Counted from the first letter of the stretch, positions 4,809 through 21,471 are shown. The stretch: 64,000 nt of DNA from Vulcanimicrobiota bacterium (GCA_963837195.1 CAWIMO010000006.1:526798-590797), one strand, 5' to 3'. Notes: generated by a model not told the origin, from the letters alone. Program-made: numbers and translations.

Positions 4809-6053
4809 ATGACCTCCGACGCGAAGCCGCTGGCCGAACCGCGGCTCGACCGCACGCCTGCGCTCGTGCGTCCCGGCTTCGTCGCCGGTGCCTCGGCCAA
4901 CGATCCCACCACGGTGGGAAGCCTCGCGGCTGTCGGCGCGACGACAGTCTACGGTCTCGCCTGGCTCGTCGTTGCGATTTTGCCGATGCTCGCGGTGACC
5001 CAGATGATCGCGGCATCCGTCGGTGCCGCCACCCGCACCAGCGTGCAGGGCGCGATCGTGCGCCGCTACGGCATCACTGCCGGACTGCTCTCGCTCGCCG
5101 CAATCGTCGCAGTCAACCTTATGACGCTCGTTGCCGACATCGAGGCCGGGTGTCAGGCCCTCTCGCTGCTCGTCGGCCTTCCGTATCAATGGTTCTTGCT
5201 GCCGTTCGCCGCGGCGATCGCCTACCTGCTGCTCACCCATTCGTACGGGCGCATCGCGACCTGGTTGATGTTGGTGCCGATTCTCTTTGTTGCATACGCC
5301 GCCAGCGCTGCGCTCGCGCACGTCGATTGGCTCGACGTAGCGCGTCATACGTTCGTTCCGCATTTTGAATTCTCGGGCGTATATCTGATCGGCGCGTTGG
5401 CGCTCATCGGCACGACGATCACCAGCTACGAGTACGTGTGGGAGTCGATCGAGGTCGCGCAGTCGCGGCGGGGGCCCTCTCGCTTAGGTGCGCTCAAGCT
5501 CGACGCAGTGCTCGGCGTCCTGGCGGCCGGCGCCGGCTTCCTGTTTGTTCTCGTCGCTTCCGGCGCGACGCTCGGCGTGCACCATCTTCCGATCGAGACC
5601 GTCGACGACGCCGCCCGCGCGCTCACCCCGCTCGCCGGCCCCGCCGCGGGCGCACTGTTCGGCATCGGCCTCTTCGCGTCAGCGGTGTTGACCGTGCCGA
5701 TCCTAGCCGCTTCGACCGCGTATGCCGTCGCGCACACGTTCGGAAGCAATGCATCGCTCGACGCAGACGTGCGCGACGCCAAGCCGTTTTATGCAATCAT
5801 TCTCGGCGCGCTCTTGGTGGGCGCGGGTGTCGCGCTGCTTGGGCTTCCGCCGATCCGCCTGCTGGTCTGGGCTTCGATCGCGGGCGGACTCGGCACGCCG
5901 ATCACGCTCGTGCTCATGAATTGCGTCGCGCGCAGCCGCCGAACGATGGGCGACTTTCGTATCGGCCTGCCGCTCTCGATCGCCGGCTGGACGGTGACCG
6001 CGCTGATCGTGCTCGCGTGCGCCGCGTTCCTCTTGATCGAAACACAAGCTTAA
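4809..6053 (+). CDS. NRAMP-family divalent metal cation transporter
   Basis: GASANDPTTVGSLAAVGATTVYGLAWLVVAILPMLAVTQ and a polytopic hydrophobic profile. Confidence 0.7.
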   Translation: MTSDAKPLAEPRLDRTPALVRPGFVAGASANDPTTVGSLAAVGATTVYGLAWLVVAILPMLAVTQMIAASVGAATRTSVQGAIVRRYGITAGLLSLAAIVAVNLMTLVADIEAGCQALSLLVGLPYQWFLLPFAAAIAYLLLTHSYGRIATWLMLVPILFVAYAASAALAHVDWLDVARHTFVPHFEFSGVYLIGALALIGTTITSYEYVWESIEVAQSRRGPSRLGALKLDAVLGVLAAGAGFLFVLVASGATLGVHHLPIETVDDAARALTPLAGPAAGALFGIGLFASAVLTVPILAASTAYAVAHTFGSNASLDADVRDAKPFYAIILGALLVGAGVALLGLPPIRLLVWASIAGGLGTPITLVLMNCVARSRRTMGDFRIGLPLSIAGWTVTALIVLACAAFLLIETQA

Positions 6054-6128
6054 CCACCCGTCCCTTGTTTCTAATGCGGCCAACTCGGGAAAAATACCGA
6101 TAATAATAATGGAACGAGGTGATCCGGG

Positions 6129-6473
6129 ATGGCTCTGTTTAGAGCAGTCGCGCTGCTTCTTTTGCTCAACGGACTTTCGACTGCGCAAACGTTCGCGCAA
6201 ACGGTACCCGTATGGCAAACTCCGGCCGACTCGATCGCCATTCTGACCACCGGCGGCAACCAAGATTTCAGCTATGCGCTGGTTCGCGACAGTTCCATGA
6301 AAAACCACAATACGTACTGCATCACCGTCGGCGCGCACATCGGCAAACTGCGCGTCGTTTCGATCGGGCCGCGCGGTGTGGTGCTCTCCAACGGCCGCGT
6401 CCTGAAAAATACCGCCGCTAGCGCACAGCCGGCCACGCTCGTCGGCGCCGCGGAGGCGCCGCCCCGCCCCTGA
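6129..6473 (+). CDS. Secreted hypothetical protein
   Basis: Signal peptide [24 protein letters not shown]; AT-rich promoter-like region and GAGGTG upstream. Confidence 0.5.
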
Positions 6474-6487
6474 CGTATAACCGGGGA

Positions 6488-7603
6488 ATGAGCAGCGTAC
6501 GCGTCTTGGTCGGCACGCGCAAAGGTGCGTTCATTCTCGACTCCGACGGCACGCGCAAAACCTGGCGCGTGAGCGGCCCGCACTTTGCCGGGTGGGAGAT
6601 CTACCACGTCAAGGCGTCGCCGGTTGATCCCCAGCGCATCTACGCCTCGCAGAACACCAGCTGGCACGGCCAGGTCATGCAGCGTTCGGACGACAGCGGC
6701 GCAACCTGGGAGCCCGTCGGCAATGGGTTTACGTACGACGGCGTGCCCGGCACACATCAATGGTACGACGGCACGCCGCACCCATGGGAATTCGCGCGCG
6801 TCTGGCACATCGAGCCCTCGCTGACCGATCGCGAGACCGTCTATGCGGGCGTCGAAGACGCAGCGCTCTTTCGTTCGACCGACGGCGGCCAAAGTTGGAA
6901 CGAACTCTCCGGTTTGCGCACGCACACGTCGGGCTCGTCGTGGCAACCCGGCGCGGGCGGCATGTGCCTGCACACGATTCTGCTGGATCCGAGTAATCCG
7001 CAGCGCATCTTCACCGCAATCTCCGCGGCCGGCGCATTCCGCAGCGATGACGCCGGTGCGAGCTGGCAGCCGATCAACCGCGGGCTGCGCTCCGCCCAAC
7101 TCCCGGATCAAGACGCCGAAGTCGGTCACTGCGTGCATCGCATCGCCCTTCATCCCTCGCGCCCCAACGTGCTCTTCATGCAAAAGCACTGGGATGTGAT
7201 GCGCAGCGACGATGCGGGAGATATGTGGCGCGAAGTCAGCGGGAATCTGCCGACTGATTTCGGTTTTCCGATCGACGTGCATGCCCACGAACCCGATACG
7301 ATTTACGTCGTGCCGATCAAGAGTGATTCCGAACATTTCCCACTCGACGGACAGTTGCGAGTCTATCGCAGCCGCACCGGCGGCGACGAGTGGGAAGCCC
7401 TTACCAACGGTCTGCCGCAGCGCGATTGCTACGTGAACGTGCTGCGTGATGCAATGGCGGTCGATCGGCTTGACAGCTGCGGCATTTACTTCGGCACAAC
7501 CGGCGGCCAGGTGTACGTCTCGCCCGACGGCGGCGACTCGTGGAACACGATCGTGCGCGATCTGCCGGCGGTACTCTCGGTCGAAGTCCAAACACTGCCG
7601 TGA
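6488..7603 (+). CDS. BNR/Asp-box repeat beta-propeller protein (sialidase-like fold)
   Basis: Six SxDxGxTW-type boxes: [54 protein letters not shown]. Confidence 0.8.
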
Positions 7604-7896
7604 TCCGCGTCGTCTTGCCCGCGCACCTCAAGTCGCTGGCACGGGTGAACGACGAAGTCCACCTCGACCTCGACGAAGCGGCGACGCTGGGTGCCGTGCT
7701 CTCGGCGGTCGAAGCGCGCTATCCGATGCTGCTCGGTACGATCCGCGATCGCGCCACCCACCAACGCCGGCCGTACATCCGTTTCTTTGCGTGCGAACGC
7801 GATCTCTCGCACGACGCACCCGATTCGCCGCTGCCCGAACCGGTGACGCACGGCGCCGAGCCGTTGCTCATCGTCGGCGCTATGTCCGGCGGCTAA
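7600..7896 (+). CDS. MoaD/ThiS-like ubiquitin-fold protein ending in Gly-Gly
   Basis: The GTG at 7600 overlaps the upstream TGA (GTGA). [44 protein letters not shown]...[10 protein letters not shown]. Confidence 0.7.
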
Positions 7897-7930
7897 GCCG
7901 GACCACATAAAGGAAAACGGCGGCAAATAC

Positions 7931-8203
7931 GTGTCTCAGATTGCGCCCGAGGAATTCTACGCGCTGCCGCTACGAGTCCACACGTTCCTCGCAGACGTTC
8001 CGTTGCATGACGCGTGGGCAGTGGATCTGCCGCGCCCTGCCAAGCGTGTAACCTTGGCCGAATTCAATCCGTTCGGGAATCAGCATCGCGTGGTCACCCG
8101 GCTCCCTGCACCCGCGCGTGCGCTCTTCGATCTGCGGCTCCTTCTCGGTCGCATTTTCCGTCTCGAAGCCGAACCGCGGGCAAACGCCTGTTCTAGCGCC
8201 TAA
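7931..8203 (+). CDS. Hypothetical protein, possibly a truncated DUF2867-like N-terminal fragment
   Basis: FLADVPLHDAWAV...LFDLRLLLGRIF resembles N-terminal halves of longer proteins; only 90 aa here. Confidence 0.35.
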   Translation: MSQIAPEEFYALPLRVHTFLADVPLHDAWAVDLPRPAKRVTLAEFNPFGNQHRVVTRLPAPARALFDLRLLLGRIFRLEAEPRANACSSA

Positions 8204-8213
8204 AGCTAATCTC

Positions 8214-8222
8214 TGCTATAAT
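8214..8222 (+). promoter_or_regulatory. Extended -10 promoter element TGCTATAAT, 8 nt upstream of the antitoxin ATG (near-leaderless)
   Basis: ctgcTATAATgagcgtgtATG read directly; no SD. Confidence 0.45.
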
Positions 8223-8230
8223 GAGCGTGT

Positions 8231-8653
8231 ATGTCTACCCTGGCCCTGGCACCGACGGCCATCGATTTTGCCCGCTCGCCGGCGAAGCTCAAGGCGCTCT
8301 CGCCCACGGCGATTCGGGCGTTTAAGGATATCGCGGCGCACTGGAAGCTCGCTCCCATCGAGCAGCGCATACTACTCGGGGTGCTGCCGCAGTCGACCTA
8401 CACCAAGTACATGCGCGATCCCGACGCGGCGCTGCTCTCCTACGACGCGCTGCAGCGCATTTCGATGCTGCTCGGCATCTTCAAGGCGATCAACGTCCTT
8501 CTGCCCGACGCGCAGCTCGCCGACGCCTGGATCAACCAGCCCAACGCGTATCCGCTCTTCAAAGGAAAGAGCGCGAAAGAACTGTTGCTGGACGGCTCGT
8601 TCGAGAGCCTGACCGCCGTGCGCGCCTACCTCGACACCGAACGCGGATGGTAG
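8231..8653 (+). CDS. Xre/MbcA/ParS-type antitoxin (DUF2384 toxin-binding domain)
   Basis: LSYDALQRISMLLGIFKAINVLLPDAQLADAWINQPNAYPLFKGKSAKELLLDG; overlaps the downstream RES gene (ATGG). Confidence 0.75.
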   Translation: MSTLALAPTAIDFARSPAKLKALSPTAIRAFKDIAAHWKLAPIEQRILLGVLPQSTYTKYMRDPDAALLSYDALQRISMLLGIFKAINVLLPDAQLADAWINQPNAYPLFKGKSAKELLLDGSFESLTAVRAYLDTERGW

Positions 8654-9279
8654 CGCGCTTCCGCAAGAAGCATACCTTTCGCGTCATCGCCCATCGCCGC
8701 CATGAGGCACGAATTGCCGATCGGTTAAACTCAGTCACCGATCGCGCCGCGCTCGATGAAATCGAAGCCATCACCAATCCGCGCAGAAAGTTCCCCAGCG
8801 GCGCGGGCAACGAGATGATCATCGCGTCGTTCGCCTATTCCGGCAACAGCCGCTTCACCGACGGCAGCTACGGCGTCTACTACGCCGCTTTCGAACAACG
8901 CACTGCAATCGCCGAATCGGCCTATCATACCGCGCGCTTCCTCGCCTACACGCAGACGCGGCCGGCGCTGATCTACAAGCGCGTGCTCACCGCCGACATC
9001 AAAGGCACCTACGACGACCTACGCACAACGCCGGCGACCGATCCGATCTACGATCCGGATCCGGATCGCTACGCCGCCGCGCAAGCTTACGCGCTCGGGC
9101 TTTACGCGGCCAACGTGGTCGACGGCATCGTCTACCGTAGTGTCCGCGACGCACGCGGTACGTGCGCCGTGGCCTTCCGTCCGCACCTCATCTCCAACTG
9201 CCAGACGGCCGGGTTTCTCGCTTATACGTACGATGGTGCGCGCATCGATGAGATCTTCGCCCTCGAACCGGTCACTTGA
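8647..9279 (+). CDS. RES-domain toxin (MbcT/ParT-like NAD+-targeting family)
   Basis: RFTDGSYGVYYAAFEQRTAIAESAYH ... DGIVYRSVRDARGTCAVAFRP carry the R, E and S positions in the expected order. Confidence 0.8.
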   Translation: MVARFRKKHTFRVIAHRRHEARIADRLNSVTDRAALDEIEAITNPRRKFPSGAGNEMIIASFAYSGNSRFTDGSYGVYYAAFEQRTAIAESAYHTARFLAYTQTRPALIYKRVLTADIKGTYDDLRTTPATDPIYDPDPDRYAAAQAYALGLYAANVVDGIVYRSVRDARGTCAVAFRPHLISNCQTAGFLAYTYDGARIDEIFALEPVT

Positions 9280-9316
9280 CCGCTTGGCTGGCCAAGCTGA
9301 TTGACGCCTGTCCGAA

Positions 9317-11125
9317 ATGTGCATACTAATCGAGGCCCCAAAGGGGGAAGCCGGAGGCCTTTCATTGACCGAAACCGCGGAAACACGCGATCAAGCGCGG
9401 CTGAACTTGCTCGTTCGGGCCGGTGATATCTTTCACCAATCACTCGACGTGGTCGAGACCCTCAACAATGTTGCGCGGCTCGCCGTCGAATCGTTCGCCG
9501 ACCTCTGTCTATTCGATTTGCTCGACGATCGATCCGACCGGCTCTTCGTCACCGCGGCCGCGCATCACGATCGGCTCAAGGAAGAGGGCCTCGCCAACAT
9601 CTCGGGTCTGCTGTACATCGACGAATTCGGCGAGCATCCGGTCGTGCGCGTCACGCGCACCGGCGAGCCGTTCTTCTTACCCCACATCGACGACGCGACG
9701 CTGGTCGAGCACGCCGCCTCCCGGCAGCACGAGCAATACATGCGGCGTCTGGGCTACCGCTCGAAGATCGTCGTCCCCGTCATCGCGCAAAATCATATCT
9801 TCGGCGCCCTCACCTTTGCGCGGACGCGTGACGGCCACGACTTCGATCACAGCGATCTCTCCTTCGCCATCGAGTTGGGCCGTCGCGCCGGCCTCGCCGT
9901 CGCCAACGCAAAGCAGTTCCACCGCGAACAGTATGTCGCCGAGACGCTGCAGCGCTCGTTCCTGCCGCGGCGCTTCCCCTCGCCCGAGGGCATCGAACTC
10001 TCGGCACACTACCGCCCCGGCTCGACCGAGGCCGACATCGGCGGCGATTGGTACGACGCATTCCAGAACCTCGCCGGTGAAATTGTCGTCACCATCGGCG
10101 ACGTGACCGGCAAAGGGATCGAGGCGGCGCGTTTGATGGTGTTAATGCGTCAAGCAATTCGCGTGGCCGCGCTCGATTCGAACGATCCGCGCAAGATTGC
10201 CGACGTGTGTAACCGGCTGCTCCTCGCTGACGATGAAAACCGTTTGGCCAGCACGTTCATCGGCATCATCGACCCGGAGACGCGGCTGCTTCGCTACGTC
10301 TCGGCGGGTCATGCACCGCCGCTCTTACGCCTTCCCGACCGCACGGTGCAGTGGCTTGAGTGCCCATCGCCGCCGATCGGCGCCTTTCGCAACGTCGAGT
10401 TTGAGTTATACGAAGCGCAGTGCCCGGAACACAGTATGCTGGTCATGTATACCGACGGTATCACCGAAATCGCGCGCGACGTCGCCGCCGGCGAGGCCAT
10501 GATCGAGGCGGTGCTGCGCTCCGATGCGATCGCGCATGCGGCAAATCCGGCCGAGTTCGTCGAGCGCGCGATCGCCAATCTCGCGCCGCGCGACGATATC
10601 GCGATCATTGTGGTGCGCTTTTCGCAGAGCGCGATGCGCTGGCAGTTCGAAGCAGCCGATGTCCGCTCAGCCTACGCGATGCGCGATGAATTCTTCCAGA
10701 GTTTGTTGAGCTTATGCGAGCCCGACGACGAAGAGCTTGCGAACTGCGGCGTGATCTTTGCCGAAGTCATCGGGAATGCGGTCCGTCATGCGCCGGGACC
10801 GCTGAGCGTTTCGCTCGAGCTACGCGATGGTGCGCCCGTGCTGCACGTCATCGACCGCGGGCCCGGATTCACATTCCAACCGGTGCTGCCGGCCAATATC
10901 TGGTCCGAGTCGGGACGCGGGCTGTTTCTCATCTCGCAACTGGCGCGACGCGTCGACGTCGAACGGCTGCCCGGACTCGGCAGTCACGTCGTCGTGACCC
11001 TCCCGATCCCGAGCCGCCGCCGAGGGCAGCAGGAAGCACCATTGTCATCATTTGCTACGCTGGAACACGATGAAGGCGCATCTCGTCACACTTCGCGGGA
11101 ACTACGTACGACTCGAACCGCTTGA
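9317..11125 (+). CDS. GAF - PP2C (SpoIIE-type) phosphatase - HATPase_c (RsbW-like) fusion protein
   Basis: N-terminal GAF-like region; ETLQRSFLPRRFP...ADIGGDWYDAF...MYTDGITE (SpoIIE/PP2C); C-terminal FAEVIGNAVRHA...HVIDRGPGF...GRGLFLISQLA (ATPase). Confidence 0.8.
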   Translation: MCILIEAPKGEAGGLSLTETAETRDQARLNLLVRAGDIFHQSLDVVETLNNVARLAVESFADLCLFDLLDDRSDRLFVTAAAHHDRLKEEGLANISGLLYIDEFGEHPVVRVTRTGEPFFLPHIDDATLVEHAASRQHEQYMRRLGYRSKIVVPVIAQNHIFGALTFARTRDGHDFDHSDLSFAIELGRRAGLAVANAKQFHREQYVAETLQRSFLPRRFPSPEGIELSAHYRPGSTEADIGGDWYDAFQNLAGEIVVTIGDVTGKGIEAARLMVLMRQAIRVAALDSNDPRKIADVCNRLLLADDENRLASTFIGIIDPETRLLRYVSAGHAPPLLRLPDRTVQWLECPSPPIGAFRNVEFELYEAQCPEHSMLVMYTDGITEIARDVAAGEAMIEAVLRSDAIAHAANPAEFVERAIANLAPRDDIAIIVVRFSQSAMRWQFEAADVRSAYAMRDEFFQSLLSLCEPDDEELANCGVIFAEVIGNAVRHAPGPLSVSLELRDGAPVLHVIDRGPGFTFQPVLPANIWSESGRGLFLISQLARRVDVERLPGLGSHVVVTLPIPSRRRGQQEAPLSSFATLEHDEGASRHTSRELRTTRTA

Positions 11126-11243
11126 TACCGCGCGAACGTGCGCGCACCTCGCCACTTTTTTGGCATAGCAGGTAGCTCGGCTGCTCCCTTTGGCCCGTAG
11201 TCGATAGGCACTTTTGCCCAGCAGGTAAGATGATCAGGGTTCT

Positions 11244-11495
11244 TTGCCTAAGTATAGTGTCATGACGAAAATCGAATCCTCGCTAAGCCCGGCAGAACGT
11301 GGTGTGCTGCAAAAACTTCTGGACGGACTTCGCAATCAAGATATTGCTGCGCGGCTCCGACTTTCCGACAAGACGGTGAAGAATCACATCTCGCACATCT
11401 TGCGCAAAACCGGAACTTCGTCGCGTCTCGAGTTGACGATTAAGGTCTACAAGCAGCGCGAGCGCGAATTGCGCCGCCGGCTCACGGCCGCCTAA
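11244..11495 (+). CDS. LuxR/GerE-family HTH regulator (stand-alone DNA-binding domain)
   Basis: LSPAERGVLQKLLDGLRNQDIAARLRLSDKTVKNHISHILRKTGTSSRLEL. The start may be ATG 11262. Confidence 0.8.
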   Translation: MPKYSVMTKIESSLSPAERGVLQKLLDGLRNQDIAARLRLSDKTVKNHISHILRKTGTSSRLELTIKVYKQRERELRRRLTAA

Positions 11496-11609
11496 AGGCA
11501 CAAGCCCCTCGGAAGACCGGCCCGGGCCAAAGGGCGCAAGGGAGCGGCCGTTGCCGTAAAGGAAGTAGGGTCATCGAAACCTACCCGCTCTCTTGAGAAC
11601 GGCGACTGC

Positions 11610-13892
11610 ATGCGCATTCGGTTGGTCTGGGTGCTTTTTTCCTTGGGGGTGATCGTCGCCGGGTGCGGGGGCGGCGGCGGGTCCGGACTGGTCCCGACCG
11701 TCGGGAATCCGGGCGGCGGCAACACCGCGCCAACAAGCCGCGAAATTACGCACGCGAACATCACGCTCTACGTTCCCCCTACGAGCAAACAGGCGTCGTC
11801 GTCGCGCAAGCCCTTCTACATCTCTTCGAATACCCAAGCGTTCGGCATCGTCGTCGTCCCGTATCCGTCGACGATCCCATCTCCGCTGCCCACGACCAAC
11901 ATGCAGATCTTTCCGGTCGTGACGCCGAGCCCGTGCGCGATTGCGAGCGGCGGCGGTGAGAGCTGCAATTTCACCGTGACCGCGCCGATCGGCACGGATC
12001 TCTTCATCGTCGCTGCTTTCGCGACGTCGGCACCCAACGGCAACACCACGCCGCTCTCGATGGTCGTGTCCCAACCCGTCACCGTAAGCGCAAGTAGCGC
12101 GCCGATCAGCTTCACGCTCAACGGCGTCGTGCAGAGCGTCGCGGTCACGGTTGCTAGCCCCGATCCGGGAAATACGCCGAATACGCAAGTCTTCACCGTG
12201 GGCGTTCCGACGTCGGCACCCATCGCTGTCACAGCCTACGACGCGTCCGGCAATATGGTGATGAGCGATCCCACGTTGCCGTATTACAATGCGATCGTCA
12301 TCAAAGCGTCGCCCGCGTCCGACGGCCTCACGCTTTCACTCACCTCGAGTTCCGCATGCAGCAGCAGCGCATCCGGTGCGACGGCCACGATCGACTGCGC
12401 CGGCGATCTCAACGATGTAAAAGTGTCCTACGACGGCACCCCGCGCCCCGACGCGAACGACCACCTCATCGATAACTACTCCGTCACCGCGCCGAATCCA
12501 ACAGCGTCGCCCGCCAACTACGTGCTCGCGAGCAACATCGAATCGTACCCGCTCGTCATCGGCGGCGGTGACGTGTACAGCGCCTATATCGGGCGCGAAG
12601 CCACCGGACCGTTTTGGTTCGCCTCTTACATAGGAAGCGGTTGGATCACCGGCACGTTTGACCCCAGCACCGCGACCGCCGGCGCACAAGGCTCGCTCTT
12701 GGACATCGGGTCCACGGTGGAGGGCGTCGCCATGGCGCCTAACGGCAATCTGTGGGTGAACGACTACGGACCACTGGCATGCTACGCCTCCATTGCGGGC
12801 GGCACACCGATCGTGAACGGCCTCTACCCGTGGACGTCCGGCGGCGACGAAATATATCCGTTCGGCATCACCTTCGACACGAGCGGCAACTTGTGGTACG
12901 TCGGATACGACGTGGAATACGATGGTCCGCCGCCGTCGTACGTCGGCTATGTTAACGCATCAGCGAACTGCGCCCCGAGTCCCAGTTCGCCGACCGCACA
13001 ATTCACCCTCAATGGCGATATTGAGGAACAAAGCACCAACATCACCCCGCTTGCCGCCGGCAACGGCGTAGCGATCGTGTCGTACAGCCCGTACGACATG
13101 CCCAACCCGCTGTTCTTAGTCACGACCAGCAGCCCCGCGACGGTCTCCGGATATCCCTCCGTGCTTAGTGGCTCGTACCAATACGGCGCGGGCGTCGCGG
13201 TCGATGGCGCCGGAAACGCGTACGGCATGTTCTATAACACCGGTGGCCCCGCAGCTGACGTCGAGAAACTTGCGTCCGGCGGAAGTGCACTCACATCGCT
13301 GCTCTTGCTTCCGCCGGTACCGGCAACGCCTGCGCCGGCAGCGCAGCCGACCGGCTTGCAGGCGTTCTCGCCAAATGGCGGTGCCGCCGACCGCATGGAG
13401 TATGTCGACACCAATTACCAAGCGCTCGGACTGATCGAGTCGATCCCCGCATCCCCAATGCCGATCCTCGTTTCGCTGCCGAATTCCGCCGACGCATTCC
13501 AAGCGGCGTACAACGGCAACGGTGGCGAGTACGTGCTCGATATGGATGCAAGCGAGAATCTCAACATCGTTCGCGTGATGCCGACCAAGACGTGGTCGGT
13601 CCCCAACGTTTCGCTCAACTCGGCCTGCGGTTCGACCGCGCTGCTTACCATTCTGGAACGCGGCGACTCCGGTCCGTTCACGGTGAGCATTCCTCCAACA
13701 AGCGGCGTTACGGCGACGCAGTTGCCGGGCGCCGATCACGACTTCTGGCTTTCGGTTCCAAACGCGGGTTCATCGTTTACTGCCACCGTGACCGATGCGC
13801 ACGGGCGGCAAGAGAATTTCAACGTCACGTCGGCTCCAAGCGTCGTCACCTGCGGCGCCGCACATCGGCGGCTCACAAAGCACCACATCTAG
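11610..13892 (+). CDS. Large lipoprotein, paralog 1 of a tandem triplet
   Basis: Lipobox VIVAGC followed by a Gly-rich linker; shared motifs TPSPC, VTAPIGTD, SPDPGNTP, GNLWYVGYD. Confidence 0.8.
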   Translation: MRIRLVWVLFSLGVIVAGCGGGGGSGLVPTVGNPGGGNTAPTSREITHANITLYVPPTSKQASSSRKPFYISSNTQAFGIVVVPYPSTIPSPLPTTNMQIFPVVTPSPCAIASGGGESCNFTVTAPIGTDLFIVAAFATSAPNGNTTPLSMVVSQPVTVSASSAPISFTLNGVVQSVAVTVASPDPGNTPNTQVFTVGVPTSAPIAVTAYDASGNMVMSDPTLPYYNAIVIKASPASDGLTLSLTSSSACSSSASGATATIDCAGDLNDVKVSYDGTPRPDANDHLIDNYSVTAPNPTASPANYVLASNIESYPLVIGGGDVYSAYIGREATGPFWFASYIGSGWITGTFDPSTATAGAQGSLLDIGSTVEGVAMAPNGNLWVNDYGPLACYASIAGGTPIVNGLYPWTSGGDEIYPFGITFDTSGNLWYVGYDVEYDGPPPSYVGYVNASANCAPSPSSPTAQFTLNGDIEEQSTNITPLAAGNGVAIVSYSPYDMPNPLFLVTTSSPATVSGYPSVLSGSYQYGAGVAVDGAGNAYGMFYNTGGPAADVEKLASGGSALTSLLLLPPVPATPAPAAQPTGLQAFSPNGGAADRMEYVDTNYQALGLIESIPASPMPILVSLPNSADAFQAAYNGNGGEYVLDMDASENLNIVRVMPTKTWSVPNVSLNSACGSTALLTILERGDSGPFTVSIPPTSGVTATQLPGADHDFWLSVPNAGSSFTATVTDAHGRQENFNVTSAPSVVTCGAAHRRLTKHHI

Positions 13893-13901
13893 GAGGGCGC
13901 A

Positions 13902-16133
13902 ATGCGTACTCTATTGGCCGGTTCTCTCTTTGCACTCGCGATTCTCGTTGCCGCCTGCGGCGGCGGCGGAAAATCCGGCGTGGTGCCGACCCTCGGCGGT
14001 AATTCGGGCGGCGGAAGTCAGTCCAACGCAAAGACCACCAACGCCGTCATCGTGCTGAACATTCCGGCGCCGAACCGGCAAGTATCGCGCCGGCCGTTCT
14101 ACGTCTCGCCCGGTACGCAGTCGCTCGGCGTGCTCGTGGTCCCGGCGACGTCAACGGAGACGCCTACGCCCACCAATCTGACGATCTTTCCGGTCGCCAC
14201 GCCCAGTCCGTGCGCCGCTGCAAGCGGCGGGGGCTACACCTGCACGCTCAACGTTACGGCGCCGATCGGCACCGATAATTTCTTCGTCGGTGCGTTTGCG
14301 ACCGCCAGCCCTAATGCGAATGCGGTCCCGCTTTCACAGTATGAAGCACTCGGCATCACCGTAAGCGCAAGTTCAGGCTCAACGCCGCTCACCTTCACGC
14401 TCGACGGCGTCGTGTATAAGGTACAGCTCAGCGTGCCGAGCCCTGATCCCGGCAACACGCCCTACACAGAAGTTTTCCCGGCCGCCGTCGCAGCCGGACC
14501 GTTGCCGCTCGACATCACGGCCTACGATTCGAGCAACACGCCGATTCTCACCAACGTCACCAACACGTTTGCCACCCCGATCGCGATCGGCTCCCCGTCA
14601 CCCGGCGGCGATGGCGTCACGCTCTCACTCAACGGTGCGACGTGCAGCACCATCACTAACGGTGCCGTCTCGGTCGGCTGCGCCGCCGACCTCAACAAGG
14701 TGCAATTCGCGTACGACGGCACGACGACACCGGACACGAACGATCACGTCATCGATACCTTCACCATCGCCACGACGACGCAACAGGGAAACCCCACGCC
14801 GTCGCCGGCCTACGTCGTGCTCTCGAGCAATGTCATTCCGTATCAAATTCCGCTGGGCGGCGATTACGCTGAGAACGCGTTTCTTCTTACCCAGTCCTCG
14901 GGACAGCTGCTCTACGTCGTGAACATCGGCGAGGGCGGCCTCATTGGAACGTTCACGCCATCCACTGCGGCGCTCTCGGCGCCGGTCACCTTGAACGGCG
15001 TCGAGGACCCCAGCAACATGGCGGTCGCACCGAACGGCGCGTTCTTCGTCGTCGACAGCGAATCGACCATCGATTGTTGGAGTACGGCATCGAGCGCGGT
15101 CTCGGGCGCTGCACCATCGGCGTCATTTAGTCCGCCGCCCGATCCGGATGACTACGTGCCCGGCGTCTACGCCCTCACCGTCGACAGCGCGAACAATGTC
15201 TGGATCGTCGGCTACGACTATGAAGGCGAAACCTACCAGGAATACGCAACGTACTTTCCGGCCGCGGGCGCCTGTAGCGGCTCGCCGGTGTTCGGCGCGT
15301 ACATCACGCTCAACGGCGACAGCAACGACGAGGGCAATTTCATCACGCCGCTCAGCAGCGGCGGCATGGCCTACGCATCGGGCGATGGCGACGGACTCTA
15401 CACGGCAACGACCGCAAACGCCGGCGGCAGCGTCAACAGCATCACCCCGGCGCTGGGTTCCGGCTCCTACAGCGGCGGCGTGGGAACCGGCGCCAACGGA
15501 ACCGTCTATGCGCCCTTCTATAGTTACGAGACCGGCACCGGCGACATGGAGACGATGCCGTCAGGAGGCTCGTCGCTCAGCTCGCTGCTCTCGCTCGTTC
15601 CCACGTCAGCGGTGAACGGCTACGGCCCCGAACCCGACGGCCTTTCGGTCTTCTCGCTCAACGGCGTACCCGATCGCATCTCCTACGTCGACAACGAGTT
15701 CTACGCGCTCGGCGTGGTGGGAAACCTCACGACGACGCCCACAACGATGCTGATCTCGCTGCCCAACGTCTACAATGTGTATCAAACCACGCACAACAGC
15801 AAGGGCGGCGAGTACATCATCTACGAGGACAGCAACGGTTACATGTATCTCACGCGCTCGATCCAAACCACGACGTGGAATGTTCCCGTGACGTCGATCG
15901 GGACCGGCGAATGCGGAGAAACCCCAGTGTTGAGCATCAACCAGCGCGCACCCTCCGCCGGGCCGTTTACACTCGGTTTCCCGGACGGCGGATCGGCCGC
16001 CCCGATGCCCGGTGCGAACAACGATCAGGTGCTCTCGCCGCCCGGATCGGGGCCATTCCCCGTCACCGTCACCGACGCCGGCGGTCGCACCGAAACCTAC
16101 AGCATAACCGTTACGAATAACGAGGGCTGCTAA
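13902..16133 (+). CDS. Large lipoprotein, paralog 2
   Basis: Lipobox LVAACGGGGKSG; GGAGGG SD 9 nt after the upstream stop; the same motif set as paralog 1. Confidence 0.8.
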   Translation: MRTLLAGSLFALAILVAACGGGGKSGVVPTLGGNSGGGSQSNAKTTNAVIVLNIPAPNRQVSRRPFYVSPGTQSLGVLVVPATSTETPTPTNLTIFPVATPSPCAAASGGGYTCTLNVTAPIGTDNFFVGAFATASPNANAVPLSQYEALGITVSASSGSTPLTFTLDGVVYKVQLSVPSPDPGNTPYTEVFPAAVAAGPLPLDITAYDSSNTPILTNVTNTFATPIAIGSPSPGGDGVTLSLNGATCSTITNGAVSVGCAADLNKVQFAYDGTTTPDTNDHVIDTFTIATTTQQGNPTPSPAYVVLSSNVIPYQIPLGGDYAENAFLLTQSSGQLLYVVNIGEGGLIGTFTPSTAALSAPVTLNGVEDPSNMAVAPNGAFFVVDSESTIDCWSTASSAVSGAAPSASFSPPPDPDDYVPGVYALTVDSANNVWIVGYDYEGETYQEYATYFPAAGACSGSPVFGAYITLNGDSNDEGNFITPLSSGGMAYASGDGDGLYTATTANAGGSVNSITPALGSGSYSGGVGTGANGTVYAPFYSYETGTGDMETMPSGGSSLSSLLSLVPTSAVNGYGPEPDGLSVFSLNGVPDRISYVDNEFYALGVVGNLTTTPTTMLISLPNVYNVYQTTHNSKGGEYIIYEDSNGYMYLTRSIQTTTWNVPVTSIGTGECGETPVLSINQRAPSAGPFTLGFPDGGSAAPMPGANNDQVLSPPGSGPFPVTVTDAGGRTETYSITVTNNEGC

Positions 16134-16135
16134 TC

Positions 16136-18507
16136 ATGACGATGCGACTTCGACTAGCGTTCGCGCTTTTTGCACTCGCGGTGTTCGGCGCAGCGTGCGG
16201 TGGCGGCGGAAAATCCGGCGTGATTCCAAGCGGCGGTAATCCGGGCGGCAACCTGCCGTCGTCGGCAAAAACCACCAACGCGGTCCTCGTGCTGAACATT
16301 CCGGCGCCGAACCGGCAAGTGTCGCGCCGGCCTTTCTACGTCTCGCCCGGTACGCAATCGCTCGGCGTGCTCGTGGTCCCGGCAACGTCAACGTGAAACG
16401 CCTACGACCGCTGAATCTGACGATCTTTCCGGTTGCCACGCCCAGCCCGTGCGCTGCTGCGAGCGCCGGCGGCTACACCTGCACGCTCAATGTCACCGCG
16501 CCGATCGGCAACGACAATTTCTTCGTCGCCGCGTTTGCGACCGCAAGCCCGAACGCCAACGCCGTCCCGCTTTCAGAGTACATCGCGCTCGGGATCACTG
16601 TGAGTGCGAGCTCCGGCACGACACCGATCACTTTCACGCTCGACGGCGTCGTGTATAAGGTGCAACTCAGCGTACCGAGTCCCGATCCCGGCAACACGCC
16701 CTTCACGCAAGTCGTTCCAGCCGGCGTCGCGGCCGGGCCGCTGCCGCTTGAAATCACGGCCTACGATTCGAGCAACACGCCGATTCTCACCAACGTCACC
16801 AACACGTTTGCAAATCCGATCGTGATCGGCTCGCCTTCACCCGGCGGCGACGGCGTCAGCCTGTCGCTGAGCGGTGCGACGTGCAGTACCATCGCCAACG
16901 GTGCCGTCTCGATCGGCTGCGCCGCCGATCTCAATCACGTCCAATTCTCCGTCGACGGCACACCGCGCCCCGACGCAAGCGATCACATCATCGATACCTT
17001 CACCATTGCGACGACGACGCAACAGGGAAACCCCACGCCGTCGCCCGCGCATGTCGTGCTCTCGAGCAACGTGTTGAGTTGGGGGCTTGGGCTCAACGAC
17101 AACCAAATCTACAACGGCCAGCTCGTACGCAACCCTACCACGGGTCAACTCGTCTACATCGCTGCCGACGGCGAGGGCAACAACTACGTCGGCACCTTCG
17201 ATCCGTCGACGCTGACCGTGGGAAGCTATGGCTCGCTCACCGCGGACGTGGGCTACGCAGCCGGCTTCGCGCTCGATTCGAGCGGCACGTTCTGGCTCGC
17301 CGATTCGGGCCAGGGTGTCCTCGATTGCTGGCCCTCGGTTACGAGCGCGGTCTCCGGCGCGGCACCAACCGTGGTCGACATCGTCCCGTACACGCCGGGC
17401 GGCGACGAAATCTACGTCACCAGTGTTGCGGTGGACGCAGCCAACAACATCTGGTACGTCGGATACGATTCCGGCGAATGCGAGGATTGCGGCCTGCGCC
17501 ACCGCAACCTCATTCCGTCAACATCTCCTGACTACAGCTATGCCGGCTATCTTCCCGCGACTGCCTGCAACGACACGGTGAATACGGCGCCCACCGCAAC
17601 CGCATACTTGACCAACGACAAGTACGACTACGTGCCGTTCATCGCACCGCTCAACAGTGCGAGCGGCGACGGCGTCTTCGTCAGCTCCTACACGGGGTCC
17701 GGGACGTACGTGATTACCACGTCGAGCACTACCGTCAATCCGGTGACGTCGCAACTCGGCGGCGGCGACGCTGATAGCTACGGCGCTGCGGTCGACGGCG
17801 CCGGCACGGCCTATGCCGCATTCTTGTCGGAGCCAAGTGCTGACATCGAGAGTATGCCGGTGAGCGGCTCGGCCTTTAGCACGCTGTTGGGCCTTCCGCC
17901 CACCACATCGGGATCGTTCCCCAGTCCGGAACCGTGGGGCATCGACGCGTTCTCTCCGACCGGTGGCGCGGCCGACCGGATCGACTATGCCGACGAAGAC
18001 TACGAGGCACTGGGACTGGTCGAAGACGTACCGGCGTCGCCGATGCCGTTGCTCGCAACGGTTCCGAACGCGGACTACACGTTGTGGGCGACGCACTCGA
18101 GCCAGGGCGGAGAATACATGCTCTACCTCGACAACTCCGGGAACCTCGATCTCGCGCGCGTCATTCCGACGACCACGTGGTCGGTTCCCGTCGCGCAACT
18201 CGGCGCGCTCGAATGCGGGGGCGACTACTTCCTTCTAAGTATCGTCGAACGCGGCAATAGCGCGCCGTTCAATGTCTCCTACTCGCCGGCAGCGGAGAGT
18301 AGTACGGCGCTGCCCGGGTCCGCCCACAACTATTGGCTGGAGACGACGGGCAACTTTACGGCGACCGTCACCGACAACAACGGCCGCACGGAAAGCTACC
18401 CGATCGCGGTCTCGACCTTCCCGCCCGAGGAATGTGGCGCGGCCCATCGCCCGCTGCGCCACGGCCCGCGGGTACTCCCTCATTTGATGGGTAAGAGAAC
18501 GCCATGA
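16136..18507 (+). pseudogene. Large lipoprotein, paralog 3, split into 16136-16396 and 16393-18507 by a +2 frame change
   Basis: The 5' part is near-identical to paralog 2. At 16386-16420, tgaaacgcctacgaccgctgaatctg versus gagacgcctacgcccaccaatctg shows two separate 1-nt insertions and an in-frame TGA. Confidence 0.75.
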
Positions 18508-18878
18508 AACAGCTCGCTCTCTTCGCGCTCGCCCTCGCCCTGGTGACGCCCGCTGTGGCCGGCGCGCAAACTCTCGCGCAGAACGCCAACACGCGCCAAG
18601 CGATTTTGGAAGTCGAATATCAGCTGCTCCAACCCGGCGTTGCCCCCGATCGCGTCGCTGCACTTCAGGCGCGAGCCGCGCAGCTCCAAGCCCAAGCCAA
18701 CGGCAGCGACTTTCCAACCGCGACGATCCCGCAGTGGGGTTCGTGCGACGCCAATAATGGCCTCATCGCCTATCTGCAAAACCAGCTCGAAACCAGCGAT
18801 CTCGACTACCAGCAAACGGTGATCGACCACCGCGCGATTTACGATCTGAGTGTGAACCTCAAACAACGCGGCTGCTAG
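18504..18878 (+). CDS. Small secreted protein, last gene of the lipoprotein operon
   Basis: ATGA overlap with the upstream gene; signal peptide MKQLALFALALALVTPAVAGAQT. Confidence 0.6.
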   Translation: MKQLALFALALALVTPAVAGAQTLAQNANTRQAILEVEYQLLQPGVAPDRVAALQARAAQLQAQANGSDFPTATIPQWGSCDANNGLIAYLQNQLETSDLDYQQTVIDHRAIYDLSVNLKQRGC

Positions 18879-18883
18879 CCCCC

Positions 18884-18930
18884 TTTGTCATGCCGAGCGT
18901 AGTGAGCGGAGCGAAGCATAGTCGAGGGAC
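18884..18930 (+). repeat. Dispersed repeat unit (variant)
   Basis: tttgtcatgccgagcgtagtgagcggagcgaagcatagtcgagggac. Confidence 0.8.
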
Positions 18931-18943
18931 CGAAAGGAGCTCC

Positions 18944-19318
18944 ATGCCCACCGCGTCTTGCATCCCGGTCATTCCAAGCGTTGATCTGGAGAGAAGTTTG
19001 CGCTTGTGGGTTGATGGCCTCGGCTTTTCGATGAGCTCAGAGACGCGCAAAGATGACAGGTTAATATTCTGCATGCTCCAAAAAGACGAGCTCCGCTTTA
19101 TGCTGAATCGGCGTGCGGGGAATCCGGTTAAACCGCAAGACTACGAAGGTATTCGACTGTATTGGGCGCCCGAGGATATATTCAAAACGAGAGAGCACCT
19201 GAAGAGCCTCGGATATTATGTCTCGGAGTTTGTAGACCGGGAGTACGGACAAACCGAGTTCGTGCTCACCGATGAAGATGGCTATTCACATTGCTTCGGT
19301 GCGCCGACTTCATCGTGA
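18944..19318 (+). CDS. VOC-family (glyoxalase/bleomycin-resistance fold) protein
   Basis: AAAGGAG SD then ATG 18944; MPTASCIPVIPSVDLERSLRLWVDGLGF...FVLTDEDGYSHCF. The track ORF starts inside the repeat and is probably too long. Confidence 0.7.
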   Translation: MPTASCIPVIPSVDLERSLRLWVDGLGFSMSSETRKDDRLIFCMLQKDELRFMLNRRAGNPVKPQDYEGIRLYWAPEDIFKTREHLKSLGYYVSEFVDREYGQTEFVLTDEDGYSHCFGAPTSS

Positions 19319-19699
19319 GTTACGACCCGGCGAACCCGCCGCTGCTCGAACCTGACGCGCCGCTGCCCGCGAAGGGCTTCGTCGTCACGACCCTACTCAT
19401 CGTAAAGAGTGTCGCGCACTCGCGCGATTACTACAAACACGTCTTCGACGCGCAAGTGATCGACGAAGACGAACCTGCGACGCTACGTCTTGCAAATACC
19501 TGGCCGCTCATCAATCGCGGCGGCGGATCCCGATCGCCTCAGCATCGCGCTGAACTTTCGCGTCGCCGACATCCACGAATGCTATAAACTGTGGAAGTCG
19601 CGCGGCGCGCATTTCCTCACCGAACCCAAAGTCCATAAGGACGACGGCTCGGCCAAACAACCGACTAATTCAACGATTTGCGGGAACGGGGGTCAATAG
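19315..19699 (+). pseudogene. Frameshifted and C-terminally truncated VOC-family paralog of the gene at 42448-42906
   Basis: Frame 1 ...ATLRLANTWPLINRGGG then frame 2 DPDRLSIALNFRVADIHECYKLWKSRGAHFLTEPK, compared with the intact IGNTWLIFNPGGG...MNLRVADIHACYELWKSRGATFLTEPK. Confidence 0.65.
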
Positions 19700-19744
19700 G
19701 ACGATTGTGACGCTGCCGGGAAACGATGGCGTCAACCCAATTAG

Positions 19745-20125
19745 GTGAGGCGTATGAGTGTAAAGCTAGGTTCCGTTGCGCATTTTTCGCTTGCTGTGCG
19801 TGATCCAGCCGCGAGCGCGAAATGGTGGACCGATAAATTCGATCTTAGCGAAGTCCGTGCGTCCGCCGACCGGGTGCTGCTCAGAAATGACGACTTCGCC
19901 CTGGCACTCTTTCGCGGCGAACCGAGTCGCAACGTCCAGGAACACATGGCCTTTAACGTTGCCGACATGGACGCGCTCACGCAAGCCGGGATCGCCCTGC
20001 TCGCAAAGGGCGTCGAACTCGAAGACGGCGAGAACGCGATCGGACCGGTGGCGCCGGGATCGACCAGCTTTGGTTTGTGGTTCCACGATCCCGACGGCTA
20101 CCGGTGGGAACTGTTCGTTAGTTAG
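19745..20125 (+). CDS. VOC-family (glyoxalase-like) protein
   Basis: VAHFSLAVRDPAASAKWWTDKFDL...EHMAFNVADMDAL...GLWFHDPDGYRWELF. Confidence 0.8.
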   Translation: MRRMSVKLGSVAHFSLAVRDPAASAKWWTDKFDLSEVRASADRVLLRNDDFALALFRGEPSRNVQEHMAFNVADMDALTQAGIALLAKGVELEDGENAIGPVAPGSTSFGLWFHDPDGYRWELFVS

Positions 20126-20468
20126 AGCTAACCGGAACGCGCGCCGTTTGCGCAGCCTTGAGAATGACGTCGGCAAGCGCCGCGATGTAGACCAGCCCAA
20201 TTACGCGATCGTCAGTTCCGGCGGCGGTAATGACACTGCCGCCATACGAGTGGCCGACCAGAATAGCGGGACTGTTGACGCGTCCGAGCGTGCGCTTCAC
20301 GGTGGCGACGTCGTCCTCGTTGGTATCGAGGCCATATTGCGCCGCGATTACTTCATAACCCGCAGCTTGCAGCGGGGGAATGACCTTGCTAAAGCTTGAG
20401 CCGTCAGCCCAAATTCCGTGGCAAAAAACGATACTCGGCGCCGGTCTGTCTTGCGCTCGCCCGGCCAA
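20118..20468 (-). pseudogene. alpha/beta hydrolase, N-terminal ~95 aa only (truncated)
   Basis: IVFCHGIWADGSSFSKVIPPLQAAGYEVIA...LVGHSYGGSVIT (nucleophile elbow), then ends after YIAALA with an unrelated tail. Confidence 0.6.
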
Positions 20469-20487
20469 GAACCGATACTCCTAGATA

Positions 20488-21015
20488 GTGAGTATCAAGA
20501 GCGTCCGTCTACAGCAGAACTCCGGCGATCCGGGGACGCCTATGCAGCTCGCCGGGCGCGGCGCATCGGCAACCGTTTCCGAGACGATCCTCGAGCCCTC
20601 GGCAAACGCGCTCACGCCCTCCGACATCGCGCTGATCAGTGCGGCGACCGGCGCCCAGTTCCAATCGACGCCGCAAGGCCTGCAGATGGTGCAGTGGTAC
20701 AGCCCTGGCGTTCCAATAAACGGCGACGACTACGTGAACGCGCTCTCGGTGGTGAAGGAAGATTTGAAAAAGCACGGCGACTTTGCCTCGCCGACCGCAG
20801 CGAGTTCGCTGGCGCTGGGCGAAGCCGAGTTTCGATACGCGCAGAACTTCGCGCATGCGATTGTTTCGACGCGTAAGGCGATCGGTCCGGACAAACCGAT
20901 CACGCCCACGATGGTCATCGACGCGGCAAAGCAAGCCAATACGAACGGTACAACCGTCCCGGAAGCCTACGTCGCCAATGCGATCGGCTATCTCAACGGC
21001 ATCGCGCTAGGCTAA
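20488..21015 (+). CDS. Hypothetical protein
   Basis: ORF with normal composition; no recognisable motif. Confidence 0.45.
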   Translation: MSIKSVRLQQNSGDPGTPMQLAGRGASATVSETILEPSANALTPSDIALISAATGAQFQSTPQGLQMVQWYSPGVPINGDDYVNALSVVKEDLKKHGDFASPTAASSLALGEAEFRYAQNFAHAIVSTRKAIGPDKPITPTMVIDAAKQANTNGTTVPEAYVANAIGYLNGIALG

Positions 21016-21471
21016 CTGCTTCTCCATGAAATAACTGGTTTTGATCGCGCTCGCGGGGAGCGATGCGTAGGGTTCGAACGCGCGGCACGGCATGAAGCCG
21101 CGGCGACGATAAAAGCCAATCGCGGCGGGCTGGTGGACGCCCGTCTCCAATCGCACCAGGCGCAATCCGGCGTTGTGCGCTTCCCGTTCAAGCCGCTCGA
21201 TGAGCGCGTCGGCCACGCCCGCGCCACGCGCCGACGCGCGCACGTACATGCGCTTGAGCTCGGCGAACTCATCGAAACAGGCAACGCCGCCGCAGCCGAC
21301 GGCTTCCCCGTCCAACCGTGCGACGAAAAACCGCACCGGCGGCTTGAAGATCGCGTCGATCGTAAGCCCGTGGCGCTGGTCGGGCAAATACGTGCCGGCC
21401 AGTTCCGCGTCGAGCTCGCCGATCAACACCCGCACCTCGTCGTCCGGCGCATGGACCTGTTCGATTACCAT
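21007..21471 (-). CDS. GNAT-family N-acetyltransferase
   Basis: ELKRMYVRASARGAGVADALIERLEREAHNAGLRLVRLETG...AIGFYRRRGF. Confidence 0.85.
   Translation of the reverse strand: MVIEQVHAPDDEVRVLIGELDAELAGTYLPDQRHGLTIDAIFKPPVRFFVARLDGEAVGCGGVACFDEFAELKRMYVRASARGAGVADALIERLEREAHNAGLRLVRLETGVHQPAAIGFYRRRGFMPCRAFEPYASLPASAIKTSYFMEKQLA

Follow-up and report, generated by a model that had tools for sequence, protein, structure and literature searches.

How did two neighbouring genes come to be nearly alike in one half and only distantly related in the other? The question is raised by a 64,000-nucleotide stretch of DNA from a Vulcanimicrobiota bacterium (GCA_963837195.1, CAWIMO010000006.1:526798-590797), here called the window, in which three full-length lipoprotein paralogs lie in tandem on the + strand between positions 11,244 and 18,878. 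They are c1 (11610..13892; 760 residues, with an alpha-type stalk and a class-A head), c2 (13902..16133; 743 residues, with a beta-type stalk and a class-B head) and c3 (16136..18507; 789 residues when read through, with its own signal peptide, a stalk derived from c2 and a class-C head). The assignment of c1 is based on its open reading frame (ORF), tblastn and trees, that of c2 on AlphaFold2, Foldseek and its ortholog P0002/L5_b (76% identity), and that of c3 on ORFs and trees. A fourth family copy was not found in the window by tblastn. The window copies are named W_c1 to W_c3, and related loci are numbered from L001 with their copies lettered, so that L5_c is copy c of L005. The original prediction explained the mosaic by recent duplication or gene conversion of a conserved anchor/stalk module attached to diversifying heads. 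Gene conversion is upheld by the breakpoint, the discordant trees, the synonymous divergence and the retained signal peptide of c3: this gene is shown to carry an internal gene-conversion tract, with c2 as the donor and c3 as the acceptor.

The first requirement is that the step in identity is real. Between c2 13962-14810 and c3 16201-17049 the two genes are 85.0% identical at the nucleotide level (83-85% over the stalks overall, with 150-nt windows peaking at 93%), and their heads are 54% identical, so that the C-terminal halves are indeed only distantly related. The identity of 90-95% over the first ~900 nt that had been estimated by eye proved too high, since the measured value extends over ~850 nt and even the pair chosen as its example, 14041-14160 against 16281-16400, reaches 89.4%. 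Nor does the similarity begin at the very 5' end, where the first 65 nt of c3, encoding the signal peptide, lack c2 likeness. The abrupt collapse expected near 14840/17070 lies at 14804-14831 in c2 and at 17043-17070 in c3. As had also been observed, c1 is diverged throughout (stalk 63% identical to that of c2 at the nucleotide level, head 34-43% at the amino acid level). A maximum chi-square test was applied to the sites at which c3 agrees with either c2 or the head ortholog L5_c. It gave 235 against a highest value of 18.5 in 500 permutations, and the identity step is therefore real; together with sliding-window identity, this contradicts uniform divergence along the genes. The 3' break falls in a nearly invariant hinge, NPTPSPA-VVLSSN, which is the predicted stalk/propeller boundary, and the 5' edge of the tract lies in the conserved Cys-GGGG codons.

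A step of this kind might be mimicked without any recombination if purifying selection were stronger on the stalk than on the head. Family-wide identities of ~55-60% for stalks and ~38% for heads, and a ratio of nonsynonymous to synonymous divergence (dN/dS) of ~0.15 in the stalk, point in that direction. However, a difference in rate is unable to yield discordant topologies, and these are what was found when 22 array proteins were split at the stalk/head boundary and analysed by neighbour-joining with 200 bootstraps. In the head tree, W_c3 pairs with L5_c (98%) within a group that also contains L2_c and L6_b (100%), and W_c2 pairs with L5_b (100%). In the stalk tree, W_c3 pairs with W_c2 (99%), and L2_c pairs with L5_c (100%) in a separate gamma clade. 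Accordingly, the W_c3 stalk is 89% identical to that of W_c2 and 58% to that of L5_c, and its head is 72% identical to that of L5_c and 39% to that of W_c2. The trees are concordant for c1, which falls with L2_a and L6_a in either of them. Synonymous divergence (dS) also steps, from 0.45 between the c2 and c3 stalks to 1.16 (saturated) between their heads. A pure difference in selective constraint is thus hardly credible.

The same trees bear on a recent whole-gene tandem duplication of c2 and c3, followed by fast head divergence under diversifying selection with the stalk conserved. The genes are adjacent, with high stalk and low head identity, and the dN/dS of their heads (0.54) exceeds that of the stalk (0.15), as this scenario would have it. 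Nevertheless, the two heads belong to different old classes with orthologs in other genomes, at 72-75% identity as compared to 39% between c2 and c3, and given the head groupings described above they must have split before these genomes diverged. Saturation of head dS, as against 0.45 in the stalk, is equally at odds with a recent origin; the dS between c2 and its ortholog L5_b, 0.78-0.94, also exceeds that between the c2 and c3 stalks, in line with conversion. Furthermore, the c3 orthologs L5_c and L2_c bear a gamma stalk that is 90% conserved between them, which a duplicate of c2 would not explain. The dN/dS of orthologous heads is 0.18-0.29 (0.37 for W_c3 vs L6_b), and the heads are therefore constrained rather than diversifying. 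Duplication has an extremely low probability, and the notion of diversifying heads in the original prediction is not sustained either.

Where the tract begins and ends distinguishes conversion from a simpler exchange. Within 16201..17043 on the + strand of c3, corresponding to c2 13962-14804 in the donor, 224 of 266 informative sites are c2-like. Downstream of it the count falls to 121 of 502 (Fisher p = 2e-60 against the tract), and in the 65 nt upstream to 7 of 21 (p = 1e-6). Over these 65 nt, c3 has an identity of 79% with L5_c and of 65% with c2, and the encoded signal peptide, MTMRLRLAFALFALAVFGAAC, is of the L5_c type (MTLRLRLSFALFALTVFAAAC), unlike that of c2. Because c3 keeps its own signal peptide, the c2-like segment is an internal patch, and the event is therefore a gene conversion in which c2 served as donor. 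A hybrid without an internal patch would result from one unequal crossover joining a c2-like gene to a class-C gene. Such an event has a likely counterpart in L6_b, a chimeric gene in a 2-copy array of another genome, which breaks at the same alignment columns, combines a beta-type signal peptide and stalk with a class-C head, and looks like the product of a single unequal crossover. For W_c3 this origin is improbable, since 14 informative sites against 7 in its first 65 nt are L5_c-like, the signal peptide is not of the c2 type, and an intact c2 still lies directly upstream in the array.

The mechanism shown by these data is that ~850 nt of the c2 stalk were copied into c3, from just past the lipobox/GGGG codons to the stalk-head hinge. 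The copied segment replaced a gamma-type stalk, still borne by the c3 orthologs, and the signal peptide and class-C head of c3 stayed in place. Similar homogenisation between neighbouring copies has arisen independently in other genomes, as stalk/head identities of 82/38% for L3_b/c, 77/39% for L1_e/f and 76/43% for L3_a/b indicate. Stalks accordingly evolve in concert within an array, and heads survive as old classes, each conserved separately. Gene conversion is a familiar process, of which this case is fairly ordinary. The case also provides a clean example from nature of conversion at a domain boundary, in which both breakpoints are mapped, donor and acceptor are known and unconverted orthologs are at hand.

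The integrity of c3 needs separate consideration. Three tandem genes of ~750 residues had been predicted, and full-length paralogs are indeed present, but the c3 frame is split in this assembly. The frame that opens at 16136 ends at a TGA at 16394-16396 and resumes from a GTG at 16393 in another frame, giving ORFs at 16136-16396 and 16393-18507. As compared to c2, c3 has two 1-nt insertions, at ~16394 and ~16412, about 18 nt apart; the frameshift site was placed at 16385..16413 (+ strand) from c2 and from in-frame short-read versions. Removal of the two extra bases gives 789 residues with no other stop. The short-read versions come from shallow soil metagenomes of one study that hold fragments of the locus (X1 and X5 are samples). 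Contigs from both samples are in frame at the site (...GTCAAGTGAAACGCCCACACCGCTGAAT..., SETPTPLN). A 210-nt contig of X5 joins an in-frame c3-type patch (...GTCAAGTGAAACGCCCACACCGCTG..., SETPTPLN) to c3 downstream sequence, which is the phase of the window minus the extra bases. The frameshift was reproduced in none of the short-read contigs found. Otherwise c3 is intact over 2.1 kb, with a head dN/dS of 0.23 against its ortholog. The frameshift is most likely a long-read consensus error rather than a real pseudogene; the alternative is a very recent lesion.

Split genes occur elsewhere in the family. Two or three ORFs replace one gene at L019 9853-12238, L030 10001-12343, L034 9860-12156 and L008 29-1699, and the broken copies of L019, L030 and L034 are in other long-read genomes of the same project. 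L008 bears a palsa metagenome bin label and a non-Flye contig name, and was taken as short-read data. In L006 the small protein that accompanies the array (12373-12745) is frameshifted, and it is intact in the near-identical L009. These split genes reflect either frequent decay of array members or long-read indel errors.

Could the whole mosaic be an artefact of assembly or polishing, with paralog reads cross-assigned in a long-read metagenome to give a chimeric c3? The two indels in c3, the broken genes in long-read metagenome-assembled genomes of the same project and X1 short-read contigs with the opposite phase of a ~150-nt patch (16321-16470 in c3, 14084-14231 in c2) are compatible with this. 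Collapse or mis-polishing, on the other hand, predicts near-100% identity, and 85% was observed, with 128 of 852 columns mismatched or gapped over 850 nt. The X5 contig links the c3-type patch to c3 downstream as in the window, parts of both copies are covered by short-read contigs that match the window exactly, and the same type of stalk/head mosaic occurs in independent Illumina and Nanopore assemblies. An artefactual mosaic is very improbable. In assemblies made independently from short reads and from long reads, arrays of 1-6 copies occupy the same locus, and the lipoprotein array is therefore a real, variable feature and no assembly expansion; the frameshift and the phase of the ~150-nt patch may still be consensus problems.

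The full explanation, in which a cassette of envelope lipoproteins with propeller heads underwent stalk conversion and the c3 frameshift is a probable error, is considered quite likely. Several points weigh against it. The 5' boundary of the tract rests on 21 informative sites only. The nucleotide divergence of 15% means that the conversion is not recent, and patchy identity along the tract (80-93%) possibly reflects several events of different ages. In sample X1, one contig joins the in-frame c3-type patch to c2 downstream, and another joins a c2-identical patch to c3 downstream. The switch sits inside a 21-nt identical stretch, and since this is shorter than the 31-mer word length that we assume for Logan contigs, the junctions exist in the reads. 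They fit a mixture of strains, with the ~150-nt patch homogenised in one direction or the other; alternatively, the window consensus is locally mis-phased. The c3 frameshift could be a genuine strain-specific pseudogenisation. With regard to the heads, the best sub-threshold Pfam matches of the window lipoproteins are SBBP (19.9 vs 20.5 bits) and Reg_prop (15 vs 20.4), with no NHL and no Vgb_lyase. Finally, the function is wholly inferred: the heads would bind or process different ligands, one per class, held off the membrane by the stalk.

The anatomy of these proteins is consistent with an envelope location. All three start with a signal peptide (positive n-region and hydrophobic h-region) and have, as predicted, a lipobox Cys and a Gly run. 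The signal peptides up to the Cys are MRIRLVWVLFSLGVIVAG in c1, MRTLLAGSLFALAILVAA in c2 and MTMRLRLAFALFALAVFGAA in c3, and the lipobox and Gly run read ...VIVAGCGGGGG, ...ILVAACGGGGK and ...VFGAACGGGGK, respectively. The strict lipobox [LVI][ASTVI][GAS]-C is matched by VAG-C of c1 and VAA-C of c2; GAA-C of c3 fits only the broader PROSITE PS51257 pattern. In an alignment of 82 homologs, R2, F10, A17 and C19 are nearly invariant (Cys19 in at least 90%), and G21 and G22 are invariant. Eight further Cys are conserved in the family, which suggests disulfides and thereby an extracytoplasmic location. The phylum Eremiobacterota is diderm (PMC6664022; PMC9758169), and the most likely location of the lipoproteins is therefore periplasmic or at the outer membrane. 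Both TPSPC and SPDPGNTP, the motifs described as repeated, are present; each occurs just once in a given protein and is conserved among the copies.

Head structure was predicted for c2. The AlphaFold2 model (82 sequences) is all-beta, with a predicted local distance difference test (pLDDT) score of 87.2 and a predicted template modelling (TM) score of 0.81. Residues 1-42 are disordered, 45-300 form an all-beta stalk, 303 to ~660 a propeller and 665-743 a small beta domain. On the DNA, these parts correspond to signal peptide/lipobox 13902-13958, tether 13959-14030, stalk 14031-14807, propeller 14808 to ~15881 and C-terminal beta domain ~15882-16130. A model of the stalk alone reached a pLDDT of 53 from a shallow alignment of 17 sequences. 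The predicted architecture thus comprises a ~23-residue Gly/Ser tether after the lipobox Cys, disordered in the model; a stalk of ~260 residues, all-beta and containing conserved Cys pairs, which would act as a spacer; a ~360-residue beta-propeller head, a remote homolog of NHL / Vgb-lyase-type propellers; and a ~80-residue C-terminal beta domain closed by the conserved terminal Cys. The propeller-like motif GNLWYVGYD and its variants are present around an invariant Trp. Searched with Foldseek, the c2 model retrieves generic propellers, namely 1l0q, Vgb 2qc5 (target-normalised TM 0.79), YncE (TM 0.71) and Drp35.

The C-terminal CGAAHR that had been seen in c1 and c3 is there, and it is also the family consensus. 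Many members bear a His/Arg/Lys/Pro-rich tail of 10-30 residues past the last conserved Cys (CGAAHRPLHRGPRV...), which is encoded at 13845-13889 in c1 and 18430-18504 in c3. Class-B heads (c2, P0002-P0009) end exactly at that Cys. A MYXO-CTERM or PEP-CTERM sorting signal was considered for this tail and rejected, because the Cys is not followed by a hydrophobic stretch and because heads of class B stop there.

The family to which these proteins belong is uncharacterised and phylum-restricted, without a Pfam or NCBIfam model. Scans of c1, c2, c3 and the 124-residue protein encoded after them against Pfam and NCBIfam assigned no family. A homolog search with c2 found 93 proteins; the named ones are all 'hypothetical protein', and none has a Pfam domain. 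Where a source name is given, it is Eremiobacterota ('Candidatus Aquilonibacter'), together with a few Verrucomicrobiae and Acidoferrales metagenome-assembled genomes, whose labels are taken as those of mislabelled bins. A scan of one genome per GTDB species found 28 loci, mostly labelled Eremiobacteraeota, Vulcanimicrobiota or Aquilonibacter, with 5 of the 28 labelled Acidoferrum, Acidiferrales or Alphaproteobacteria. Against 1.8 billion cluster representatives, the family profile retrieved 70 clusters with an E-value below 1e-30 and 1334 with one below 1e-3. The distant hits are of two types. Some share the stalk alone and carry propellers recognised by Pfam as NHL, Vgb_lyase or SGL, such as P0167 and P0185 with Vgb_lyase matches of 2.5e-44 and 1.6e-28. 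Others are multi-NHL proteins that align to head blades, among them P0165, P0175, P0181 and P0215, matched at E 1e-15 to 1e-20 via head positions ~337-465; Vgb_lyase proteins are matched by the profile in the same range. The profile found no significant match among PDB sequences, the best being a two-component regulator propeller at E 0.0015.

Kinship with NHL / Vgb-lyase-type propellers (PF01436, PF24684; clan Beta_propeller) lies at the superfamily level only, in a head predicted to have 6-7 blades. Unlike those proteins, the window lipoproteins add a lipid anchor, a stalk and a C-terminal domain, fall below every Pfam propeller threshold and have no detectable similarity in sequence to solved Vgb/NHL structures. 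Might the heads nonetheless have an enzymatic activity of the lactonase, lyase or phosphotriesterase type, like Vgb, Drp35 and SMP30, so that the array would supply envelope hydrolases or lyases with varied substrates? The presence of Vgb lyase and Drp35 lactonase among the best structural matches, the Pfam matches of distant members to Vgb_lyase, SGL and Lactonase, and the near-invariant acidic residues D428, D548, E550, D591 and D597 speak for catalysis. Against it, the window proteins themselves have no match to those three models, no solved enzyme is matched at the sequence level, and equally good structural matches are non-enzymatic (S-layer YVTN, YncE, WD40). An enzymatic role for the modelled heads is a tentative suggestion, with the balance tilted against it.

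The best Foldseek match is an archaeal S-layer YVTN + PKD fragment (1l0q; E 1.5e-9), likewise a surface protein that combines a propeller with Ig-like beta-sandwiches. It differs in domain order, in being archaeal and in having no lipobox; the identity is 13% and the TM 0.29/0.50, and there is no sign of lattice formation by the Eremiobacterota proteins. A closer analogy in overall plan, and an analogy only, is offered by the SusE/F-like surface glycan-binding lipoproteins of Bacteroidota, in which a lipid anchor and a flexible linker are followed by an Ig-like spacer at the N-terminal side and by distal binding domains. The window locus shares this anchor-linker-spacer-head plan and the side-by-side arrangement of paralogs in one regulated locus. 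It lacks SusC/SusD and glycoside hydrolases, its heads are propellers and not CBM-like beta-sandwiches, and there is no sequence relationship.

In terms of recombination, the comparison is with the Mycoplasma Vlp/Vsp and Borrelia Erp/Mlp/Vsp-Vlp families, which are tandem surface lipoproteins with conserved 5' modules and variable C-termini that recombine. The window array resembles them in its clustered paralogs, homogenised N-terminal and divergent C-terminal parts, variable copy number and recombination between copies. Unlike theirs, its heads are old orthologous classes under purifying selection and not hypervariable, and the organism that carries it is a free-living soil bacterium under no host immune pressure. 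A search of the locus for a switching device found no homopolymer or short-repeat tract in a promoter, no invertible segment and no silent cassettes; tandem repeats are short and low-scoring, and inverted repeats short and scattered. The neighbouring ORFs that were examined (4809-21471) yielded no recombinase. A phase- or antigenic-variation system was rejected because switch elements were not found; in addition, every copy is full-length and has a start codon of its own, and the heads are not hypervariable. It may also be speculated that stalk homogenisation is selected, because the paralogs dock via the stalk on a shared partner (the 124-residue protein or an export/anchoring machine), and that recombination at the lipobox/GGGG and NPTPSPA-VVLSSN hinges shuffles heads and stalks within populations under the control of the GAF-PP2C and GerE proteins encoded upstream. 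This idea is rather unlikely. If true, the cassette would encode modular receptors of the envelope whose propeller heads can be exchanged, and the alternative-phase patches in different soil samples would be shuffling caught in progress.

Eremiobacterota (WPS-2) are abundant in acidic, oligotrophic soils, and their cell surface is almost uncharted. A single cultured representative has been described, as far as a literature search showed, and a search on lipoproteins of this phylum found nothing relevant. The cassette is a reasonable entry point for studying extracellular binding or processing by these bacteria, because it encodes conserved, regulated, copy-number-variable large envelope lipoproteins without family annotation.

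The cassette is Eremiobacterota-specific and operon-like, and consists of a GerE gene, three packed lipoprotein genes and a coupled gene for the small secreted protein, with a sensor gene upstream. The short gaps and the coupling noted in the original prediction, which as an observation was largely correct although its interpretation is only partly supported, were confirmed: 9 nt separate c1 from c2 and 2 nt c2 from c3, and the start of the 124-residue ORF (18504..18878, + strand; signal peptide, 2 Cys) overlaps the end of c3 by 4 nt (ATGA), as in translational coupling. The sensor gene (9317..11125, + strand) encodes a 602-residue protein with GAF, SpoIIE/PP2C phosphatase and HATPase_c_2 domains by Pfam and is the upstream syntenic neighbour. 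The regulator that had been called LuxR (11244..11495, + strand; 83 residues) does have a GerE/LuxR-type helix-turn-helix (Pfam GerE, E 2.5e-17). It consists of this domain alone (residues 12-66); Pfam finds no receiver, ligand-binding or N-terminal autoinducer-binding domain, and it is not a LuxR-family quorum-sensing receptor. The lipoproteins would be co-expressed with the small secreted partner under GerE control.

The gene order GAF-PP2C sensor, (GNAT), GerE, lipoprotein(s), 124-residue protein recurs in many metagenome-assembled Eremiobacterota genomes. The number of lipoprotein genes is one in L018, L019, L020 and L022, two in L006/L009, three in the window, L002 and L003, at least four in L005 and six in L001; arrays in related genomes thus range from 1 to 6 copies. 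GAF-PP2C orthologs with 73-83% identity lie upstream of GerE in 15 related loci. GerE is 84-96% identical in 17 of 34 fetched loci (98% where a contig end limits the match to 58 residues), always directly 5' of the first lipoprotein gene, and its conservation is far above that of the lipoproteins. Fifteen fetched loci also keep the 124-residue protein, at 47-90% identity, next to their lipoprotein gene or genes. In L004, a divergent 768-residue lipoprotein (14688-16994, - strand), with CGGGGG after the signal peptide and 18-32% identity to the family, is convergent with a 2-copy array and is followed by two further unannotated ORFs.

Between gerE and c1, 114 nt from ORF end to start, lies a conserved leader of ~40 nt (11537..11575, + strand; CGCAAGGGAGCGG..TAAAGGAAGTAGGGTC), almost invariant in 8 loci although identity between the flanking lipoprotein genes is only 60-78%. 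It directly adjoins the start codon in L002 and L016. From its conservation and position, it may be a promoter, operator or ribosome-binding region. It has no Rfam match, a scan of 11000-19400 giving a chance-level hit only, and its consensus fold is unconvincing (-3.5 kcal/mol, one covarying pair). Scans for sigma-70 promoters and terminators gave no more hits than shuffled sequence, and no public RNA runs holding the locus were found. A 12-nt exact inverted repeat (CGGGCCAAAGGG) flanks gerE at 11186-11197 and 11523-11534. It was rejected as an invertible element, being exact in one other locus only and equalled in count by 5 of 100 shuffles.

Around the cassette, an overlapping pair of an Xre-like antitoxin (PF20432/PF09722; 8231-8653) and a RES-domain toxin (PF08808; 8647-9279) lies just 5' of GAF-PP2C, and L002 and L006 also have this pair. 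In these two loci, a ~110-residue ORF and a secretin gene (~500 residues) stand between RES and GAF-PP2C (L002 2895-7355, L006 1976-7430), and GAF-PP2C is separated from gerE by a GNAT (Acetyltransf_3) gene. The window has none of these three between 9279 and 11244, where RES is followed by GAF-PP2C and then gerE. Downstream of the cassette, a glyoxalase/VOC-fold protein is encoded at 18890..19318 (+ strand, Pfam match); several relatives likewise have a gene of the glyoxalase family after the cassette, but no relative of the window protein was found in other loci by tblastn. Further on, a 116-residue ORF (20118-20468, - strand) that matches only the first ~100 positions of alpha/beta-hydrolase models, apparently a remnant or a frame break, abuts a + strand glyoxalase gene at 19745-20125. 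Upstream of the cassette, 6488-7603 encodes a 371-residue propeller protein of the BNR/Sortilin-Vps10 type, and in L001 a similar gene follows the 6-copy array, beside an extracytoplasmic function (ECF)-type sigma factor.

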